Shown one piece after another: positions 250-43,114 of a DNA stretch of 64,000 nucleotides. The stretch comes from Phycisphaerae bacterium (GTDB lineage: Bacteria; Planctomycetota; Phycisphaerae; UBA1845). The DNA lies in NCBI GenBank assembly GCA_963666835.2, contig CAXXGO010000001.1, forward strand, positions 1,280,001 to 1,344,000, read 5' to 3'. The position numbers were made by a program, and so were the translations under genes. The notes beneath the pieces were generated by a model that did not search any database, was not told the DNA's origin, and was given only the letters and a program-made list of their open reading frames with translations. How positions within the stretch are numbered: the stretch's first letter is position 1; each line of letters starts with the position of its first letter.

Positions 250-500
250 TGCCACCTATCGGAAGGTCGTTCACGGTCCTTCACTACCTGGTAAGGGGCG
301 GAGGAAGATACACGACGACTTTGTTGAAGACAACCCGGCTCTGTTGCCTTGGGGATGCGCTGACGACAGCCCCGCCACTGAGATGTCATGCAGTGGCAGG
401 GCTGTCGTAATACAGTGGCCACGGTCAAGAAAGTGGGCCGGCTCCGACCCGATTCGCCCTTGGATGATACTAAGATGCGCCCGTACCCTCTCGCAACGGG

Positions 501-30148: not shown

Positions 30149-30526
30149 GCGGCACTGCAAACGGGTGGCGTATCGCTTTAGCGGCGGGGGACTCCGCAAT
30201 ACGCCGAAGGCCGGGTGGCCCATGGCTTTGGCCGTGGCGGACTGGCTGGCCGGCCGGCACATCTTCTTGGCGGAGGGGAACTCCTCAATACGCCGAAGAT
30301 AGTGACATATGTCCACCGCGACCGTGTGGCGATCACCGGGGGCTTTGCCCCCAGACCCCCAAGGTTTGTCGCTTGGGAGCCAGAACAGGCCAGGGAGAGC
30401 GAGAGCCCGCCGTGCATGCAGACTCCCGCGCCTGTCCCGGCACTGGTACGAGCGCTCGGGGTGCTCCTCAGCAGAGCCCTGTCCTCTCGACCAGCACACA
30501 CAAGTCTGACGTGCTGTGCCATCGAG

Positions 30527-31300
30527 TCAAGCATGCTGGCCCTCCAACTCATGATCGATCTCCAGGTACTCCTGAACCAGGAAGATGCTGCAACCTAAAG
30601 CATGGGCTGTCTCCTTTGCCGTCAGCCCCTGAAGATGGCAGTGGCGGACGCGATCGTACTGGCCCAGGTAACGATCCACAGCCTCAAGGCTGTGGTACGT
30701 TTCCCGAGCCACTTCGTTAGCCGCTTTGCCTTCTGCGTAATGTTTGAAACAGATGATCCGTTTGTGCGTAAGCCCTGTGCCGACATCGTGGACAGTAGCG
30801 CGACGTGGGACGATCTGACCGGTCTCGCGTTCGTACGCCGCCAACAATCGCGAGACGTCCGACGCATTGACTGCTAACAACTCCGAGAGATCAGAGTTGG
30901 ACAGAACGCCCCCTTGTTCGTACGCCTGTCGGCATAACCTCAAGCTCTTTTGTAAGAGCAACTCTCCACGTCCCTTCTTCTGCAAACGCATCTCGATATC
31001 CTCGAAGGTACTCACGTCCAAGACCACCGGAAGCAGATCGGTATCCTCAATCCGTCGACGCTGACTCGGGGGATCTGCGCTGCTGATCGCCATCCAGAGT
31101 ATCTGACCATGTTGGATATGCTCCTTCGGGAGAACGTGGGCACCGATGACCTCAAGGATCATCTCTGCGCACAGGTTGCGAATCCGTGGGCCGCCTATGC
31201 GTGGAAACTCCGTTTCGATGCGGTGAGCCAACACGTTTCTCAGCGTTTTCGCCTGCAGGGGACTGTATCTTCTGCTGTTGGTGTCTCGCGGCTTACCCAT
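30527..31300 (-). CDS. DUF1670-like protein B
   Basis: QAYEQGGVLSNSDL, PRRATVHDVGTGLTHK, HSLEAVDRY; family recognised from memory of motifs. Confidence 0.8.
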   Translation of the reverse strand: MGKPRDTNSRRYSPLQAKTLRNVLAHRIETEFPRIGGPRIRNLCAEMILEVIGAHVLPKEHIQHGQILWMAISSADPPSQRRRIEDTDLLPVVLDVSTFEDIEMRLQKKGRGELLLQKSLRLCRQAYEQGGVLSNSDLSELLAVNASDVSRLLAAYERETGQIVPRRATVHDVGTGLTHKRIICFKHYAEGKAANEVARETYHSLEAVDRYLGQYDRVRHCHLQGLTAKETAHALGCSIFLVQEYLEIDHELEGQHA

Positions 31301-32144
31301 CGGATCTTCCCTCTTCACCGAGCTCCTTTTTCCCCCCGCCACAACAACCCAGGCGCATCAGTTCTTCCAGGTGATAGCCCATGTTCTTGTCGACCGCGCA
31401 TTCGTCGAGGAGATCAAGGTACTGTTGTACCAACCGCTTGCCTCTCCGCAGAAGGAAGGCGATTTGCCCGACCTGCATACCTTTCTTTGCCAACTGCGCA
31501 CAACGGGTGAATGTCGAGACGTAGTTCGCTACAGCCGCCGGTGAATGGCGAAGCATGGTGCAGATCTGTGAGGTCGTCTTTCCCTCCAGAGCCAAACGCA
31601 CGATTTGGCTGCGATGAGTCAACACGGGACCAAGATCGTGTACGATTCCTCGCAGAGGAATAAGCACCCCGGGATACGCACTCCGGAGAGCGTTCAAATC
31701 GCGCGTAATGGTTCGTGGCGTAACAAAGAACATCCGGTAGGCCAGATCTTCGCGCGTGAGCAGCCCACCTTGACTCAGGGCTTCTTGGCAAAGCGGTGGG
31801 ATGCGGGCTTGTCGAAAGCCGACCGGCCCCTCCTCCTCCAGAAGTCGATCATCCTCTGCACCTCGGTGGATTGTCAGGCACACGTTCTGCTTCTGGCATT
31901 CGCAGACGGGTTTCCCGGCAGGCTCGTCGGCGTCGACGACGACCAAGCCAATCTTGCCAGGTGGGGCCTTGCCGGCGTGTTCATCGAGGTACGGGAAGTA
32001 AACTTCCTTGACCACATCGAGAACCGCCTCGGCCTCGAATGGCGAACAATGGAGTCCGTGCTTGATTTCGTGCAAAAACTTGGCATCCAGTGTCTTCGAG
32101 TCAAGACGCTCAAGCCTCTCCTTCTTCTTGTTCCGCAGCCCCAT
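31293..32144 (-). CDS. DUF1670-like protein A
   Basis: EPAGKP, EALSQGGLLTREDL, RTITRDL, PLRGIVHDLG, HSPAAVANY. Confidence 0.8.
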   Translation of the reverse strand: MGLRNKKKERLERLDSKTLDAKFLHEIKHGLHCSPFEAEAVLDVVKEVYFPYLDEHAGKAPPGKIGLVVVDADEPAGKPVCECQKQNVCLTIHRGAEDDRLLEEEGPVGFRQARIPPLCQEALSQGGLLTREDLAYRMFFVTPRTITRDLNALRSAYPGVLIPLRGIVHDLGPVLTHRSQIVRLALEGKTTSQICTMLRHSPAAVANYVSTFTRCAQLAKKGMQVGQIAFLLRRGKRLVQQYLDLLDECAVDKNMGYHLEELMRLGCCGGGKKELGEEGRSDG

Positions 32145-32211
32145 GCGTAGTCCTCCCAAGTCCCGAAGTCCGTTACCAAGGTACCCGGGTGGACATATGT
32201 CAGGAAGGTAG

Positions 32212-32535
32212 GCGTTACGTCCCGCAGCCCAGGGTTGCCGCGGAGCGGCCACCCTGGAGTGACGGTCACATCAAAGACCAACCCTGACGGGGTTGCGACA
32301 CTGTTCAACCCACTTCGAGGTTGGTCTGGGAAGGGGCTTTGTGACTCAGGGTGGCACTGCGTGGCTGCGCCGCTTCGTTTACCCTGGGCCTTGTTGTGAA
32401 ACACCTTTGGCGTATGTTCGGAAAAGGTGAACCGTCCCGAAGGGACGTGGGCATGCAGCCACGGGTGGAACGCAGCGGAACCCGTGGGCGAGGTTTGTCT
32501 CCCAAGGCCGCCCGTCCCGGCGGGCCGGCGGACTG
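32212..32535. repeat. REP cluster including an unoccupied target-type REP
   Basis: 32283-32423 matches the joined flanks of element copy 2; 32440-32533 recurs at 37578-37669. Confidence 0.85.
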
Positions 32536-37948: not shown

Positions 37949-38896
37949 TCATCCGAAGCTGGCTGCTATTATGACGATGTAGATGCCGATGAATGGCGGG
38001 ACGACGAAGATCAGAGCTGCGAGCGTGAGCCAGAGCAGGGGCACGGACACGGCAATCAACGTCGCCCGCCTCCTGACGCGCGGCATAGCTCTTTGGGCAG
38101 TTCGCACGAGGTTCACCCACCAGGTGAACGCCACCATCCCGGCTGACAGGATGATCATCAGCCACCGGAGTTCCCAGATCTCCGCGCATGTCCAACGCCA
38201 GGATGTTCCATAGTATGGTTTGTACAACAGAACGGTGGTCGACAGCATCATGAGGACCAGGATTGCGAATGCCGCCAGCGGGCCGCAAGCGTAGTAGCTC
38301 AGCGTGCTTGCGGCGTTCTGCCGGGCAAGTGGCACGTTCCGGGGCCGGAAAAAGTCGCTGGGCACCCCGGTGGCGGCGATCAGAAAGAACAGCATGAGAG
38401 CCAGCCCAATCGCCAGCGGCCAGCCGGCTGTACAGGCATAGTCCCACAACAACGGCGGTATGGGGCCGCGATGGATCAGCTCGCGAAGCGGATCTCCCAC
38501 GACCTTCGGAGCCCGGGCGATGGCGGAGGTAACCACGACCGCCGTCACCGGCACGAAGACGTGCGCAATCGTGACCCATCGGAAGCTCTGAGCGTCTGCG
38601 CGGCTGACCGGGCGAATGCACTCCTCGCTGAAGCGCTGGTTCCGGAATGTCACCATCCAGACCGTGCGCCAGTAGCTCTTGAGGAGCCCGCGCTCTCGGC
38701 GGTGGACCCAAGGTATCCCCGACTCTGTCGACCGTAGGTTTTCCAGGGAGTGGCCGCACTCGGGGCAGCGGTTGCTGACGACCCCGCGCAGGTCATAGGT
38801 GCATTCCGAGCAGTAGACTCCAGGCTCAATTGCCGGCAGAGCGTTGGGTTGCTCATTGTCCGGTGCGTCGTTAGCGATAACAGATTCGTCTGCCAT
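37949..38896 (-). CDS. zinc-ribbon multi-TM protein
   Basis: CSECTYDLRG..CPECG, IPW, about 5 TM helices. Confidence 0.75.
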   Translation of the reverse strand: MADESVIANDAPDNEQPNALPAIEPGVYCSECTYDLRGVVSNRCPECGHSLENLRSTESGIPWVHRRERGLLKSYWRTVWMVTFRNQRFSEECIRPVSRADAQSFRWVTIAHVFVPVTAVVVTSAIARAPKVVGDPLRELIHRGPIPPLLWDYACTAGWPLAIGLALMLFFLIAATGVPSDFFRPRNVPLARQNAASTLSYYACGPLAAFAILVLMMLSTTVLLYKPYYGTSWRWTCAEIWELRWLMIILSAGMVAFTWWVNLVRTAQRAMPRVRRRATLIAVSVPLLWLTLAALIFVVPPFIGIYIVIIAASFG

Positions 38897-39034
38897 GCCG
38901 GGGGTGTCCTGTCATGCACGGATTCTGCGGTTCGTGGAGCGAACCGCACCCCATCCGAAGAACCGACCACCCTCATCATGGCAGGCTCCGGGGGTAAGGT
39001 CAAGATACGCCGTGCTGGTCGGCATGGCCGATGC

Positions 39035-39274
39035 GAGGTTGCGGCAGGTCTCGTGCCTCGACCATGCCCTACGTAGCTGCACTGCTCAAGAGTAGTGGCA
39101 CACCCGAGAACCCAGGTGTGGACGGGTGGCCCATGGCTTTAGCCGTGGGGGACCTGACGGGGTTGCGACGCTGTTCGACCCACTTCGGGGTTGGTCTGGG
39201 AAGGGGCTTTGTGACCCAGGGTGGCACTGCGCGGCTGCGCCGCTTCGTTTACCCTGGGCTTTGTTGTGAAACGC
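39035..39274. repeat. REP mosaic ending in the occupied target REP
   Basis: 39153-39274 near-identical to 32283-32404. Confidence 0.85.
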
Positions 39275-39341
39275 CTACCTTCCTGACATATGTCCACCCG
39301 GGTACCTTGGTAACGGACTTCGGGACTTGGGAGGACTACGC

Positions 39342-40193
39342 ATGGGGCTGCGGAACAAGAAGAAGGAGAGGCTTGAGCGTCTTGACTCGAAGACACTGGA
39401 TGCCAAGTTTTTGCACGAAATCAAGCACGGACTCCATTGTTCGCCATTCGAGGCCGAGGCGGTTCTCGATGTGGTCAAGGAAGTTTACTTCCCGTACCTC
39501 GATGAACACGCCGGCAAGGCCCCACCTGGCAAGATTGGCTTGGTCGTCGTCGACGCCGACGAGCCTGCCGGGAAACCCGTCTGCGAATGCCAGAAGCAGA
39601 ACGTGTGCCTGACAATCCACCGAGGTGCAGAGGATGATCGACTTCTGGAGGAGGAGGGGCCGGTCGGCTTTCGACAAGCCCGCATCCCACCGCTTTGCCA
39701 AGAAGCCCTGAGTCAAGGTGGGCTGCTCACGCGCGAAGATCTGGCCTACCGGATGTTCTTTGTTACGCCACGAACCATTACGCGCGATTTGAACGCTCTC
39801 CGGAGTGCGTATCCCGGGGTGCTTATTCCTCTGCGAGGAATCGTACACGATCTTGGTCCCGTGTTGACTCATCGCAGCCAAATCGTGCGTTTGGCTCTGG
39901 AGGGAAAGACGACCTCACAGATCTGCACCATGCTTCGCCATTCACCGGCGGCTGTAGCGAACTACGTCTCGACATTCACCCGTTGTGCGCAGTTGGCAAA
40001 GAAAGGTATGCAGGTCGGGCAAATCGCCTTCCTTCTGCGGAGAGGCAAGCGGTTGGTACAACAGTACCTTGATCTCCTCGACGAATGCGCGGTCGACAAG
40101 AACATGGGCTATCACCTGGAAGAACTGATGCGCCTGGGTTGTTGTGGCGGGGGGAAAAAGGAGCTCGGTGAAGAGGGAAGATCCGATGGGTAA
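39342..40193 (+). CDS. DUF1670-like protein A
   Basis: GGAGGA RBS; identical translation to 31293-32144. Confidence 0.8.
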   Translation: MGLRNKKKERLERLDSKTLDAKFLHEIKHGLHCSPFEAEAVLDVVKEVYFPYLDEHAGKAPPGKIGLVVVDADEPAGKPVCECQKQNVCLTIHRGAEDDRLLEEEGPVGFRQARIPPLCQEALSQGGLLTREDLAYRMFFVTPRTITRDLNALRSAYPGVLIPLRGIVHDLGPVLTHRSQIVRLALEGKTTSQICTMLRHSPAAVANYVSTFTRCAQLAKKGMQVGQIAFLLRRGKRLVQQYLDLLDECAVDKNMGYHLEELMRLGCCGGGKKELGEEGRSDG

Positions 40194-40959
40194 GCCGCGA
40201 GACACCAACAGCAGAAGATACAGTCCCCTGCAGGCGAAAACGCTGAGAAACGTGTTGGCTCACCGCATCGAAACGGAGTTTCCACGCATAGGCGGCCCAC
40301 GGATTCGCAACCTGTGCGCAGAGATGATCCTTGAGGTCATCGGTGCCCACGTTCTCCCGAAGGAGCATATCCAACATGGTCAGATACTCTGGATGGCGAT
40401 CAGCAGCGCAGATCCCCCGAGTCAGCGTCGACGGATTGAGGATACCGATCTGCTTCCGGTGGTCTTGGACGTGAGTACCTTCGAGGATATCGAGATGCGT
40501 TTGCAGAAGAAGGGACGTGGAGAGTTGCTCTTACAAAAGAGCTTGAGGTTATGCCGACAGGCGTACGAACAAGGGGGCGTTCTGTCCAACTCTGATCTCT
40601 CGGAGTTGTTAGCAGTCAATGCGTCGGACGTCTCGCGATTGTTGGCGGCGTACGAACGCGAGACCGGTCAGATCGTCCCACGTCGCGCTACTGTCCACGA
40701 TGTCGGCACAGGGCTTACGCACAAACGGATCATCTGTTTCAAACATTACGCAGAAGGCAAAGCGGCTAACGAAGTGGCTCGGGAAACGTACCACAGCCTT
40801 GAGGCTGTGGATCGTTACCTGGGCCAGTACGATCGCGTCCGCCACTGCCATCTTCAGGGGCTGACGGCAAAGGAGACAGCCCATGCTTTAGGTTGCAGCA
40901 TCTTCCTGGTTCAGGAGTACCTGGAGATCGATCATGAGTTGGAGGGCCAGCATGCTTGA
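40186..40959 (+). CDS. DUF1670-like protein B
   Basis: GAGGGA RBS, overlaps gene A by 8 nt; identical translation to 30527-31300. Confidence 0.8.
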   Translation: MGKPRDTNSRRYSPLQAKTLRNVLAHRIETEFPRIGGPRIRNLCAEMILEVIGAHVLPKEHIQHGQILWMAISSADPPSQRRRIEDTDLLPVVLDVSTFEDIEMRLQKKGRGELLLQKSLRLCRQAYEQGGVLSNSDLSELLAVNASDVSRLLAAYERETGQIVPRRATVHDVGTGLTHKRIICFKHYAEGKAANEVARETYHSLEAVDRYLGQYDRVRHCHLQGLTAKETAHALGCSIFLVQEYLEIDHELEGQHA

Positions 40960-41168
40960 CTCGATGGCACAGCACGTCAGACTTGTGTGTGCTGGTCGAG
41001 AGGACAGGGCTCTGCTGAGGAGCACCCCGAGCGCTCGTACCAGTGCCGGGACAGGCGCGGGAGTCTGCATGCACGGCGGGCTCTCGCTCTCCCTGGCCTG
41101 TTCTGGCTCCCAAGCGACAAACCTTGGGGGTCTGGGGGCAAAGCCCCCGGTGATCGCCACACGGTCGC
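40960..41168 (+). ncRNA. candidate structured RNA in the element's 3' non-coding region (mirror copy 30318-30526)
   Basis: Series of hairpins that need G-U pairs on the sense strand; expression unknown. Confidence 0.4.
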
Positions 41169-41290
41169 GGTGGACATATGTCACTATCTTCGGCGTATGT
41201 TCGGAAGATGTACGTCGCACGAAGACCAGCGGCAGGTCTCGTTCCTCGACCATGCCCTACGAGGGGAAGCAGAAGCGCGCTTGCGAGCGG

Positions 41291-43114
41291 TTAGCTCTTC
41301 TTGCGGGTCGCGCGGCGGCGGTCGAGTTCTTTGAGCACGCGCTTGCGCAGGCGGATGGCGTCGGGGGTGACTTCCACGGCCTCGTCGTCGGCGATGAACT
41401 CCAAGGCCATCTCCAGCGGCATCTCGCGGGGGGGGCGGAGGACGACCGTTTTGTCGGCCGCGGCCGCCCGGATGTTGGTCATCTTCTTCGCCCGGCAGAT
41501 GTTCACTTCGAGATCGTTGTCGCGGCAATGCTCTCCGACTATCTGGCCTTCATAGACCTGGGTCCCCGGGCCGACGAAGAACTCGCCGCGGTCGGCCAGG
41601 TTGTTTATGGCGTATCCCGTTACCTGTCCCGGTTCGTTGGCCACGAGGACTCCGTTCTGCCGACCGGGAATGTCGCCGCGGAAGAACTCGTACTCATAGA
41701 AGTTGTGGTGCATGATGGCCGTGCCGTTGGTGGCGTTGAGCATGCGGTTGCGCAACCCAATCAACCCACGTGCCGGGATGGTGAACTCGATCAAGGTCGA
41801 GTCGCCGCGCGATTCCATGGTCTTGCAGATGCCGCGCCGCCCGCCCATTAACTCCATAACAGTTCCGACATGTTGTGACGGCACATCGATTACGCAGAGC
41901 TCGATCGGTTCGGTTTTCTTGCCCGCCAGTTCGCGATAGATGACCTTCGGTTTGCCCACGGCCAGCTCATATCCCTCGCGCCGCATGTTCTCAATCAACA
42001 CGGACAAGTGCAGCATCCCCCGACCGGATACGTGCATCTCCTCGGGAGTGTGTCCCGGCTCGACCCGCAGAGCGACGTTGCTCTGCATTTCCTTTTCCAG
42101 GCGATCGCGCAGGTGGCGCGACGTGAGGAACTTGCCGGACCGCCCCGTAAACGGAGAGTCGTTTACGCGGAAGGTCATGTGGAGCGTCGGTTCGTCGATA
42201 CGGATGATCGGGAGTGGTTCGGGGTTATCAGCGCAGGCGATGGTGTTGCCGATGTCGACCGTCTGCAGCCCGACGACCGCGCAGATGTCACCGGCCGGGA
42301 CCTCTTCGACCCTTGCTCGTCCCAACCCATCGAAGGTGAACAGCTCTCCGATACGTTCCTTGTGTTGCGTGCCGTCCCGGTGGATCAAGGTCACGTCACT
42401 ACCGGCCCGGATTGAACCGGCGAAGACGCGACCGATACCGATTCGACCGACGTAGTCGTTGTAGTCGAGCGTCGTGACGAGCATTTGCAGCGGGGCGTCG
42501 GGTTTGACGTCGGGGGGCGGGACATGTTCGAGAATCACGTCGAACAGAGCGAAGATGTTGTCCGGGCGTTCGTTTGCGTTCATTGCCGCGAAACCGAGTG
42601 TGGCCGACGTGTAAACGGTGACGAATTCAAGGGCGTCATCATCGGCGCTCAGCTCGATGAACAGATCGAGCACCTCGTCGAGCACGCTGTCAGGTCGGGC
42701 GTCGGGGCGATCGATTTTGTTGATTACTACGATCGGTCGGAGATGGTTCTCGAAGGCCTTGCGCAGGACGAATCTCGTTTGCGGCATCGGTCCTTCGAAC
42801 GCATCCACCAGCAGCAGGCAGCCGTCGGCCATTTTCAGGACCCGCTCAACCTCACCGCCGAAATCAGCGTGGCCTGGGGTGTCGACGAGGTTGATCTTCG
42901 TGCCGCGGTAATTGATTGCGATGTTCTTGGACAGGATTGTGATGCCGCGTTCGCGCTCGATATCGTTGGAGTCGAGGATCCGCTCGCCCGAGACCTGGGC
43001 CGCTCGAAACTGGCCGCACTGGCGGAGCATCTGATCGACCAGGGTGGTCTTTCCGTGGTCGACGTGGGCGATGATGGCGATGTTACGAATAGCGGTGTTC
43101 TTCAAGAGCGGCAC
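41291..43114 (-). CDS. typA: translational GTPase TypA/BipA
   Basis: [41 protein letters not shown]. Confidence 0.97.

Follow-up and report, generated by a model that had tools for sequence, protein, structure and literature searches.

Does the long non-coding tail of a transposon that has no recognisable transposase encode an RNA and, if so, does that RNA guide the element to its target? The question is raised by a 64,000-nucleotide stretch of a Phycisphaerae bacterium genome (the window, in which positions are given below unless a locus is named). The original prediction, made from the sequence alone, had placed a candidate element-encoded RNA at 40960-41168 and had pointed to seekRNAs and bridge RNAs as its possible kin. 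Several kinds of transposon-borne small RNA (bridge RNAs, seekRNAs and OMEGA RNAs) have turned out in recent years to be functional components of the transposition machinery. Here we conclude that positions 40989-41150 probably specify a separately transcribed small RNA of about 160 nt, a portable cassette that unrelated transposons of many kinds carry in their ends, and that this RNA would act in folded form with a conserved partner and not as a guide.

The host element and its landing site

The region 40960-41168 is the non-coding tail of a two-gene element, the parts of which are as follows.

39277-41187 (+): host DUF1670 element, 1,911 bp; boundary from empty sites
39342-40193 (+): orfA; Pfam DUF1670 (E 2e-37) plus an HTH_23 match
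40186-40959 (+): orfB, which overlaps orfA; Pfam DUF1670 (E 2e-49)
41151-41165 (+): variable spacer, outside the conserved RNA core
41166-41182 (+): right inverted repeat with palindromic core GACATATGTC, pairing with 39286-39300; core kept across the family
41183-41187 (+): terminal extension ACTAT, the right end of the element, outside the conserved RNA core
about 30288-32235 (-): second copy of the element in the window

The element contains orfA and orfB alone. Pfam searches of its open reading frames returned just DUF1670 and helix-turn-helix domains and no recognisable transposase; they found no DEDD recombinase (PF01548, PF02371), no TnpB or IscB gene and no replication-initiator domain or Rep gene. 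In an AlphaFold2 model of the orfB product (pLDDT 79.9), the best-ranked structural neighbours are winged-helix proteins, and a search of the PDB with this model gave nothing better than E 0.2 and no catalytic fold. The predicted protein, which appears winged-helix-like throughout, gives no pointer to a catalytic or RNA-binding role, and a literature search on DUF1670 (PF07900) found no publication.

A 15-bp inverted repeat, TGACATATGTCCACC, lies near both ends of the element (left copy, 39286-39300), and six copies of the element with 99-100% identity are present in this genome. The copy studied here interrupts a repeat of about 190 nt (39153-39276 and 41188-41260), of which the genome holds more than 40 copies. 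Because this repeat is unbroken at many sites, which serve as empty sites, the insertion can be placed at a CT in the loop of the hairpin ACGCC-TTC-GGCGT. A 33-nt unit, GCGGCAGGTCTCGTGCCTCGACCATGCCCTACG (39041-39073 and 41229-41261), recurs in loose arrays with a spacing of about 110 nt; together with the repeat of about 190 nt, these units look like REP/BIME-type repeats that are used as landing sites. A BipA/TypA gene lies downstream of the element on the opposite strand. Most elements have, at a constant distance past the left-end palindrome, a TAnAnT hexamer (39301-39312; TACCTT here, TACACT or TATAAT elsewhere) that may be the -10 box of an orfA promoter.

Homologues of orfB number more than 1,453 in a large protein collection, mostly on contigs of about 2 kb. 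We compared 62 genome and 80 metagenome loci around such homologues, which according to their record titles come from Planctomycetota, Acidobacteriota, Anaerolineales, Lentisphaerae and others. A conserved palindromic core, GGACATATGTC or GCCATWTGGCA, closes the tails found 3' of orfB; most of these tails are 205-260 nt in length, with a subset of just 38-73 nt. Targets across the family are hairpin loops with differing stems (GCCCC/GGGGC, CGTCCC/GGGACG, GGCCGCC/GGCGGCC and ACGCC/GGCGT), the insertion point falls after (C/T/G)T, and in 19/19 elements the base immediately past the right-end extension is identical to the penultimate base of the left flank.

A pseudoknotted fold maintained by compensating changes

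The match to the RNA spans 40989-41150 on the plus strand. Its parts, with the promoter-like boxes upstream, are listed in order of position.

40956-40961 (+): -35-like box TTGACT, overlapping the orfB stop codon TGA (40957-40959)
40978-40983 (+): -10-like box CAGACT; family consensus nAnAAT, for example GACAAT or CATAAT
40991-41044 (+): 5' domain, made up of P1, the junction, P2a, P2b and GAGCGC
40991-41002 with 41032-41044 (+): P1; compensating changes in 7/10 pairs
41000-41010 (+): invariant junction GAGGACAGGGC inside P1 (invariant alignment columns)
41007-41009 with 41026-41028 (+): P2a
41013-41016 with 41021-41024 (+): P2b; compensating changes in 4/4 pairs
41017-41020 (+): P2 tetraloop GAGG, the 5' strand of the pseudoknot, pairing with 41122-41125
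41029-41034 (+): invariant GAGCGC (invariant alignment columns)
41045-41107 (+): P3, a long covarying hairpin
41045-41056 with 41096-41107 (+): P3a; both sides changed in 12/12 pairs
41057-41068 with 41076-41087 (+): P3b; both sides changed in 8/9 pairs
41069-41075 (+): P3 terminal loop
41088-41095 (+): 3' side of the P3 internal loop, C/U-rich
41108-41125 (+): linker, conserved single strand and 3' strand of the pseudoknot
41114-41121 (+): conserved single strand GCGACAAA (family consensus AAAGCGAUAAA), with GCG and AA invariant
41122-41125 (+): 3' strand of the pseudoknot, CCUU, directly after the conserved single strand
41132-41150 (+): P4, a G+C hairpin CTGGGGGC-AAA-GCCCCCGG without a U-run; probable 3' end of the RNA

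The plus strand of 40960-41190 folds at -116.8 kcal/mol (z -4.05), a value that 0/200 shuffles equal; the z-score of the minus strand is -1.09, and 31/200 shuffles equal its energy. For comparative evidence, we aligned 46 non-redundant long tails from elements with orfB 50-70% identical to that of the window. RNAalifold, run on this MAFFT alignment, which was not fitted to any structure, predicted 38 pairs, 31 of them with compensating double changes. A hand-written structure on the trimmed core alignment (A3) has 41 pairs with 91.6% of cells paired, versus 39-45% for slid partners, and 35 of the pairs are double-changed (0/500 shuffles). With the pseudoknot included, the figures are 45 pairs, 91.7% of cells paired versus 38-47% for slid partners, and double changes in 38/45 pairs (again 0/500 shuffles).

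The pseudoknot, which the original prediction had not included, joins the P2 tetraloop to the strand that follows the conserved single strand. Its pairs change in kind from relative to relative: at alignment columns 30/172 there are 33 AU and 11 GC pairs, at 31/171 there are 39 GC, 4 AU and 3 CG, and at 32/170 there are 42 GC and 4 AU. Over these three core pairs a single cell is unpaired (at 30/172), with none at 31/171 or 32/170. Copies of the RNA on other elements carry further combinations, GGAA/UUCC, GAAG/CUUC and GGGG/CCCC. The invariant nucleotides form the junctions (GAGG.A.GGC, C.GAGCGC and GCG..AA); P4, the distal part of P3 and the P3 loops are variable in the relatives, the latter two in both sequence and length.

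Non-Watson-Crick cells in the alignment are 164 G-U and 27 A-C, a bias from which it follows that the fold is selected on the sense strand. The comparative data on the fold fit an RNA and a single-stranded DNA form of the same fold alike. Searches against Rfam 15 gave no relevant covariance-model match in 38800-41400 of the window at E up to 10; at E up to 0.5, no match fell on the RNA in any of 10 loci with relatives. The region is a conserved structured motif that is maintained by compensating mutations, and it represents an RNA family outside Rfam 15.

Much of the structure that had been proposed from the single sequence is borne out by its relatives, in which structural conservation across homologous elements appears as covariation of P1, P2b, P3 and the pseudoknot. 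The stem 40992-41000/41034-41043 with its inner hairpin is real, corresponding to P1 and P2, which covary in the 46 relatives; the 10-bp stem 41059-41068/41076-41085 is the distal part of P3; and the hairpin at 41132-41150 (GGGGGC-AAA-GCCCCC) is P4, with a comparable hairpin in 35/46 relatives. The suggestion that G-U pairing marks the sense strand agrees with both the wobble bias and the difference in z-score between strands. Two of the proposed pairings are replaced or fall away: CCAAG/CTTGG is not conserved, its 3' half (41122-41125) pairing instead with the P2 loop at 41017-41020, and the GTGATCG/CGGTCGC hairpin lies in the variable spacer and is unsupported by the comparison.

By eye, a G-run straight after the pseudoknot strand in some relatives (41126-41130) corresponds to a P3 internal loop rich in C-runs (CUCCC or CCCCC; 41089-41093), and relatives without that G-run have CUUCCU in the loop. 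This correspondence may reflect a second long-range pairing.

A nAnAnT hexamer stands at a fixed distance from P1 in 46/46 DUF1670-linked relatives, and TTGAC, TTGAT or TTGCx occupies the -35 place, 16 nt before the -10 box, in about 40 of the 46. Most copies outside DUF1670 elements have, by eye, a TATAAT-like hexamer at the same distance from P1; the window's own -10 box, CAGACT, is weak. The RNA would have a sigma-70-like promoter at a fixed distance upstream. RNAalifold predicted no conserved pairing in the promoter-like region of the 46 relatives, and the boxes therefore look like those of an ordinary promoter read in double-stranded DNA, hence of an RNA gene. If this promoter is used, as the sequence pattern suggests, transcription would start at about 40989-40991 and end after P4. 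In 35/46 relatives the pseudoknot strand is succeeded by a hairpin with a folding energy of -10 kcal/mol or lower, and some distant relatives have the 5' domain alone, with a plain terminator (hairpin plus T-run) behind it.

Occurrence within and beyond DUF1670 elements

A covariance model, R1, built from alignment A3, has 12 matches in this genome: 6 in DUF1670 elements (131 bits), 1 solo copy (124 bits) and 5 in an IS1111-type element (74.6 bits). The copies that lie outside the element described above include the following.

30360-30497 (-), G000:C1:1310360-1310497: RNA core in the second element copy of the window; R1 131 bits
G000:C6:796202-796337: solo RNA copy; R1 124 bits
L206 875-2704 (G000:C1:1128874-1130703), and four more copies: IS1111-type element of 1,830 bp, encoding an IS110-family DEDD transposase

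The solo copy lies in a unit (L207 1166-1392, G000:C6:796165-796391) bounded by a left-end-like sequence, TTGACAAGTG, and a right end, GGGACAATTGTCAAGA. This arrangement, a left-end remnant followed by the RNA and a right end, resembles a miniature element in which the left-end palindrome would supply the -35 box. About 1 kb from this copy are two matches to the Rfam Acido-Lenti-1 RNA that fall below the gathering score of 37 (L207 35-81, minus strand, 29.9 bits; 251-297, plus strand, 29.8 bits). The IS1111-type element has the subterminal repeats CATGAAAGGCnGTC, and its five units carry identical RNA copies between a subterminal repeat and the transposase gene, on the strand opposite to that gene. 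After the RNA comes a remnant (CCGGTTCGGAC...TAGATCT) similar to the right end of DUF1670 elements. A deletion derivative of this element, about 50 nt long with both ends present, occurs in L211.

Among close DUF1670 loci, defined by orfB at least 50% identical and enough downstream sequence (10 loci were left out as too short), 89/110 have the RNA (24/37 genome and 65/73 metagenome loci) and 21/110 are without it; among more distant DUF1670 loci it occurs in 2/18. Down to 50% protein identity its location is fixed and its promoter-like boxes overlap the orfB stop codon, an arrangement that would go beyond that of a casual passenger and that leaves room for a role in the element. At L058-L062, L060, L138, L142, L160, L181 and other loci, just 38-73 nt separate orfB from the right end and the RNA is missing, although these elements are multicopy. 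In two genomes with short-tailed elements, R1 had no match among the limited candidates scored, and the core pattern occurred at control frequency; one of these two genomes has at least four element copies.

Other copies, in either orientation, lie inside or beside the transposase genes of IS110/IS1111, IS3, IS481-like, IS21, ISL3, IS5 and IS1595 elements, and solo miniature copies occur as well. Overall, the RNA is found within or next to no fewer than eight kinds of transposase gene. In most of these other elements, it is convergent with the transposase gene. It is convergent with IS110-family genes in L222-type copies, L238 and L240, the transposases of which are 25-40% identical to that of this genome, and lies downstream on the same strand in L261; relative to IS3 orfB it is convergent in L221, L234 and L235 and on the same strand in L269. 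Further neighbours are other rve genes, IstB, ISL3, IS5/DUF772, IS1595 and host genes. The RNA lies within repeated units proper in the IS1111-type element of this genome and in the G403 and G404 copies; some of the other transposase neighbourhoods may be mere adjacency. One distant relative adjoins a tRNA gene and a phage-type integrase (L265 1501-1600, 1717-1803 and 1858-3045), which is the edge of an integrative element.

In a phylum sample, 9/150 other genomes have the RNA and 3/400 have orfB, none of the latter being among the nine, and no orfA or orfB was found within 1.5 kb of the 12 RNA loci in this sample. A scan of viral contigs gave 28 pattern matches, of which 7 were true model matches, and BLAST of the tail of one relative against 72,556 plasmids and 50,697 phages gave no match. 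Because the whole-genome scans scored a limited number of first-look candidates per genome (21 to 150), absences in these scans are provisional and not proven.

Possible roles and known systems

We compared the RNA with the sequences that a guide would be expected to recognise. The comparisons used the longest exact match in 19 to 39 elements, a crude measure that short split guides of the bridge-RNA kind could escape. For the RNA versus the target and the circle junction, in both senses, over 19 elements, values within an element (6.32, 5.79, 5.58 and 5.16) resemble those between elements (6.46, 6.20, 5.49 and 5.10). Nor did the 3' part of the RNA follow the target sites: the spacer together with P4 gave permutation P values from 0.14 to 0.78 against the flanks, and by eye we saw no co-variation of P4 with the target stems. 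No conserved docking site for the RNA was found inside the element. Two further candidates were rejected. The RNA linker at 41107-41114 (CUCCCAAG) has 8 nt of complementarity to the ribosome-binding region of orfA at 39326-39333 (CTTGGGAG), which would suit antisense control of orfA; over 24 elements this is not conserved (self 6.50 versus non-self 6.52, P = 0.58). The P3 internal loop and the left-end extension have alike consensus sequences (CCUUCCU), and by eye the loop does not track the end of its own element.

A programmable guide would use RNA loops to pair with the target hairpin and the element ends, and so direct a recombinase to the CT. This reading draws on the position of the RNA in the 3' non-coding end, as described for IS1111 elements (PMC11187229), and on the subterminal inverted repeats at the element ends, the insertion at a CT in a repeated hairpin with CT on both sides, a host element without a recognisable transposase and the presence of the RNA in IS110-family elements. 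The seekRNAs described there read in sense with the transposase gene (PMC11187229). The RNA reads in sense downstream of orfB here and in sense in L261; it is antisense to the transposase gene in the IS1111-type element of this genome and in L238, L240 and L222. It also adjoins transposase genes of DDE-type Pfam families, for which no use of guides is known. Because the guide tests were null, the host element has no DEDD gene, the RNA is antisense in most of the IS110-family elements and its neighbours include DDE-type transposases, the seekRNA or bridge-RNA reading is unsupported. The 21 close elements without the RNA weigh further against it, as does the fact that the most conserved parts are junction nucleotides and not the loops that would need to vary with the target. 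We therefore retain from the original prediction a structured, strand-specific and element-encoded RNA, with covariation, a promoter-like signal and terminator-like ends, and regard its guide role as very unlikely.

The tail could instead be nothing more than the structured 3' untranslated end and terminator of an orfA-orfB transcript. It does follow orfB directly on the same strand, and P4 is terminator-like; however, the conserved promoter-like boxes, the invariant junction nucleotides, the pseudoknot and the finding of the cassette where orfA and orfB are absent, both next to other genes in either orientation and by itself, make this extremely improbable. More is to be said for the view that the RNA serves the two DUF1670 proteins as a fixed, non-programmable cofactor or scaffold, within a ribonucleoprotein that carries out or regulates transposition, with the other copies being decayed miniatures. 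The fixed place of the RNA in 89 of the 110 close elements, the overlap of its promoter-like boxes with the orfB stop codon, the miniature-like solo copy, the DUF1670-right-end-like remnant in the IS1111-type element and an orfB product that is predicted to be all winged-helix-like, with no catalytic fold found, are all in keeping with it. Multicopy DUF1670 elements nevertheless exist without the RNA, in a genome in which no copy was found, and the RNA occurs in nine phylum-sample genomes in which orfB was not found. It is also retained in IS110-family relatives with transposases that are 25-40% identical, and therefore something other than the DUF1670 proteins selects for it; a dedicated cofactor seems unlikely. 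A role in DNA copying, in which the fold, or the RNA annealed to element DNA, primes synthesis on a single-stranded or circular intermediate in the manner of a single-strand origin or ColE1 RNA II, would account for a strand-specific fold (G-T wobble being tolerated in DNA), for a place in the ends of several kinds of element, for G-runs beside a C-run after the pseudoknot strand and for the occurrence in both orientations with respect to the transposase gene, as would suit a role in DNA better than one in gene expression. Against this stand the promoter-like boxes in a region without conserved pairing, which point to a promoter in double-stranded DNA and an RNA gene, the intrinsic terminator straight after the 5' domain in some relatives, the failure to find a conserved complementary site in the element and the negative BLAST search of plasmids and phages; we consider such a role quite unlikely. 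A broader idea, to which we give an outside chance, is a universal helper RNA of transposons that acts on mobile DNA by priming or organising the copying of excised circular or single-stranded intermediates, or as a small ribozyme.

Its presence within or next to no fewer than eight kinds of mobile element makes the RNA likely to be portable cargo or a regulator and not a targeting guide. As a portable small-RNA cassette, it would be transcribed from its own promoter as a discrete RNA of about 160 nt, from about 40990 to just after P4. The conserved knotted core suggests a partner common to many bacteria, and the invariant junction nucleotides would form the binding site for that protein or ligand. 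The RNA might tune the expression of its host element, or it might be a simple hitchhiker, like ssr9 on ISPpu9. Pairing of the C/U-rich P3 loop with Shine-Dalgarno sequences at ribosome-binding sites is conceivable; this possibility and the convergent position on most other elements could fit a damping role. Retention in diverged elements of several families suggests that the RNA either pays its way or spreads selfishly.

The null guide result removes the simplest explanation of how a DUF1670 element without a known transposase finds its hairpin target. What is left is an RNA core as conserved and knotted as that of a riboswitch or ribozyme, yet common to unrelated transposon families with different enzymes and able to survive alone. 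Binding to a common host factor would point to a general means by which mobile DNA manipulates its host or comes to be tolerated; as a pure hitchhiker, the RNA would range more widely than any other RNA gene so far seen to parasitise transposons; and if the universal-helper idea were true, it would be a shared, so far undescribed RNA component of bacterial transposition.

Several known systems invite comparison. The OMEGA RNAs (reRNAs) of TnpB and IscB transposons are structured, pseudoknot-bearing RNAs at the transposon 3' end that read towards the right end, and the RNA described here is likewise structured, pseudoknotted and placed at the 3' end of its transposon, reading towards the right end; it differs in having no TnpB or IscB gene beside it in the host element and no Rfam match, and there is no sign that it runs into the flank as a guide. 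A single-strand origin is the folded single-stranded DNA of a rolling-circle replicon, recognised by RNA polymerase. Like such origins and ColE1 RNA II, our locus combines a strand-specific fold with promoter-like boxes on a mobile element; unlike them, it has its boxes outside the fold in a region where no conserved pairing was predicted, terminators after the 5' domain in some relatives and no Rep gene.

The likeness to seekRNAs (ISEc11 and ISEc21; PMC11187229) and bridge RNA (IS621; PMC13626964) lies in a long non-coding end on a site-specific element with subterminal repeats, in insertion at a CT dinucleotide in a hairpin repeat and in the occurrence of our RNA inside IS110-family elements as well. 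In contrast to those systems, the host element lacks a DEDD recombinase, the searches gave no guide-like match to target or donor, and most of the IS110-family elements examined carry the RNA antisense to their transposase gene. It has promoter-like boxes of its own in place of a circle-junction promoter, and a pseudoknot with conserved junctions in place of two programmable internal loops.

The closest analogue is ssr9 of ISPpu9, an IS110-family element of Pseudomonas putida. According to the paper that describes it, ssr9 occurs in no more than a few P. putida strains and works by base-pairing with another small RNA, Asr9 (PMC12288879). The RNA described here, likened to ssr9 by description and not by sequence, differs in its conserved pseudoknotted core and invariant junctions, in spanning several phyla (according to record titles) and at least eight kinds of transposase gene, and in that no antisense partner was found for it. 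The two otherwise run in parallel: both are small-RNA genes with their own promoter (promoter-like boxes here) downstream of transposition genes, both belong to elements that insert into repeated hairpins, both have solo copies flanked by end-like sequences, and both are read as a hitchhiking or regulatory module; ssr9 is dispensable for some copies of its element, as the RNA described here would be too. The hallmarks of an ssr9-type module that we find at this locus are the promoter-like boxes, the place downstream of the transposition genes and a solo copy with end-like bounds.
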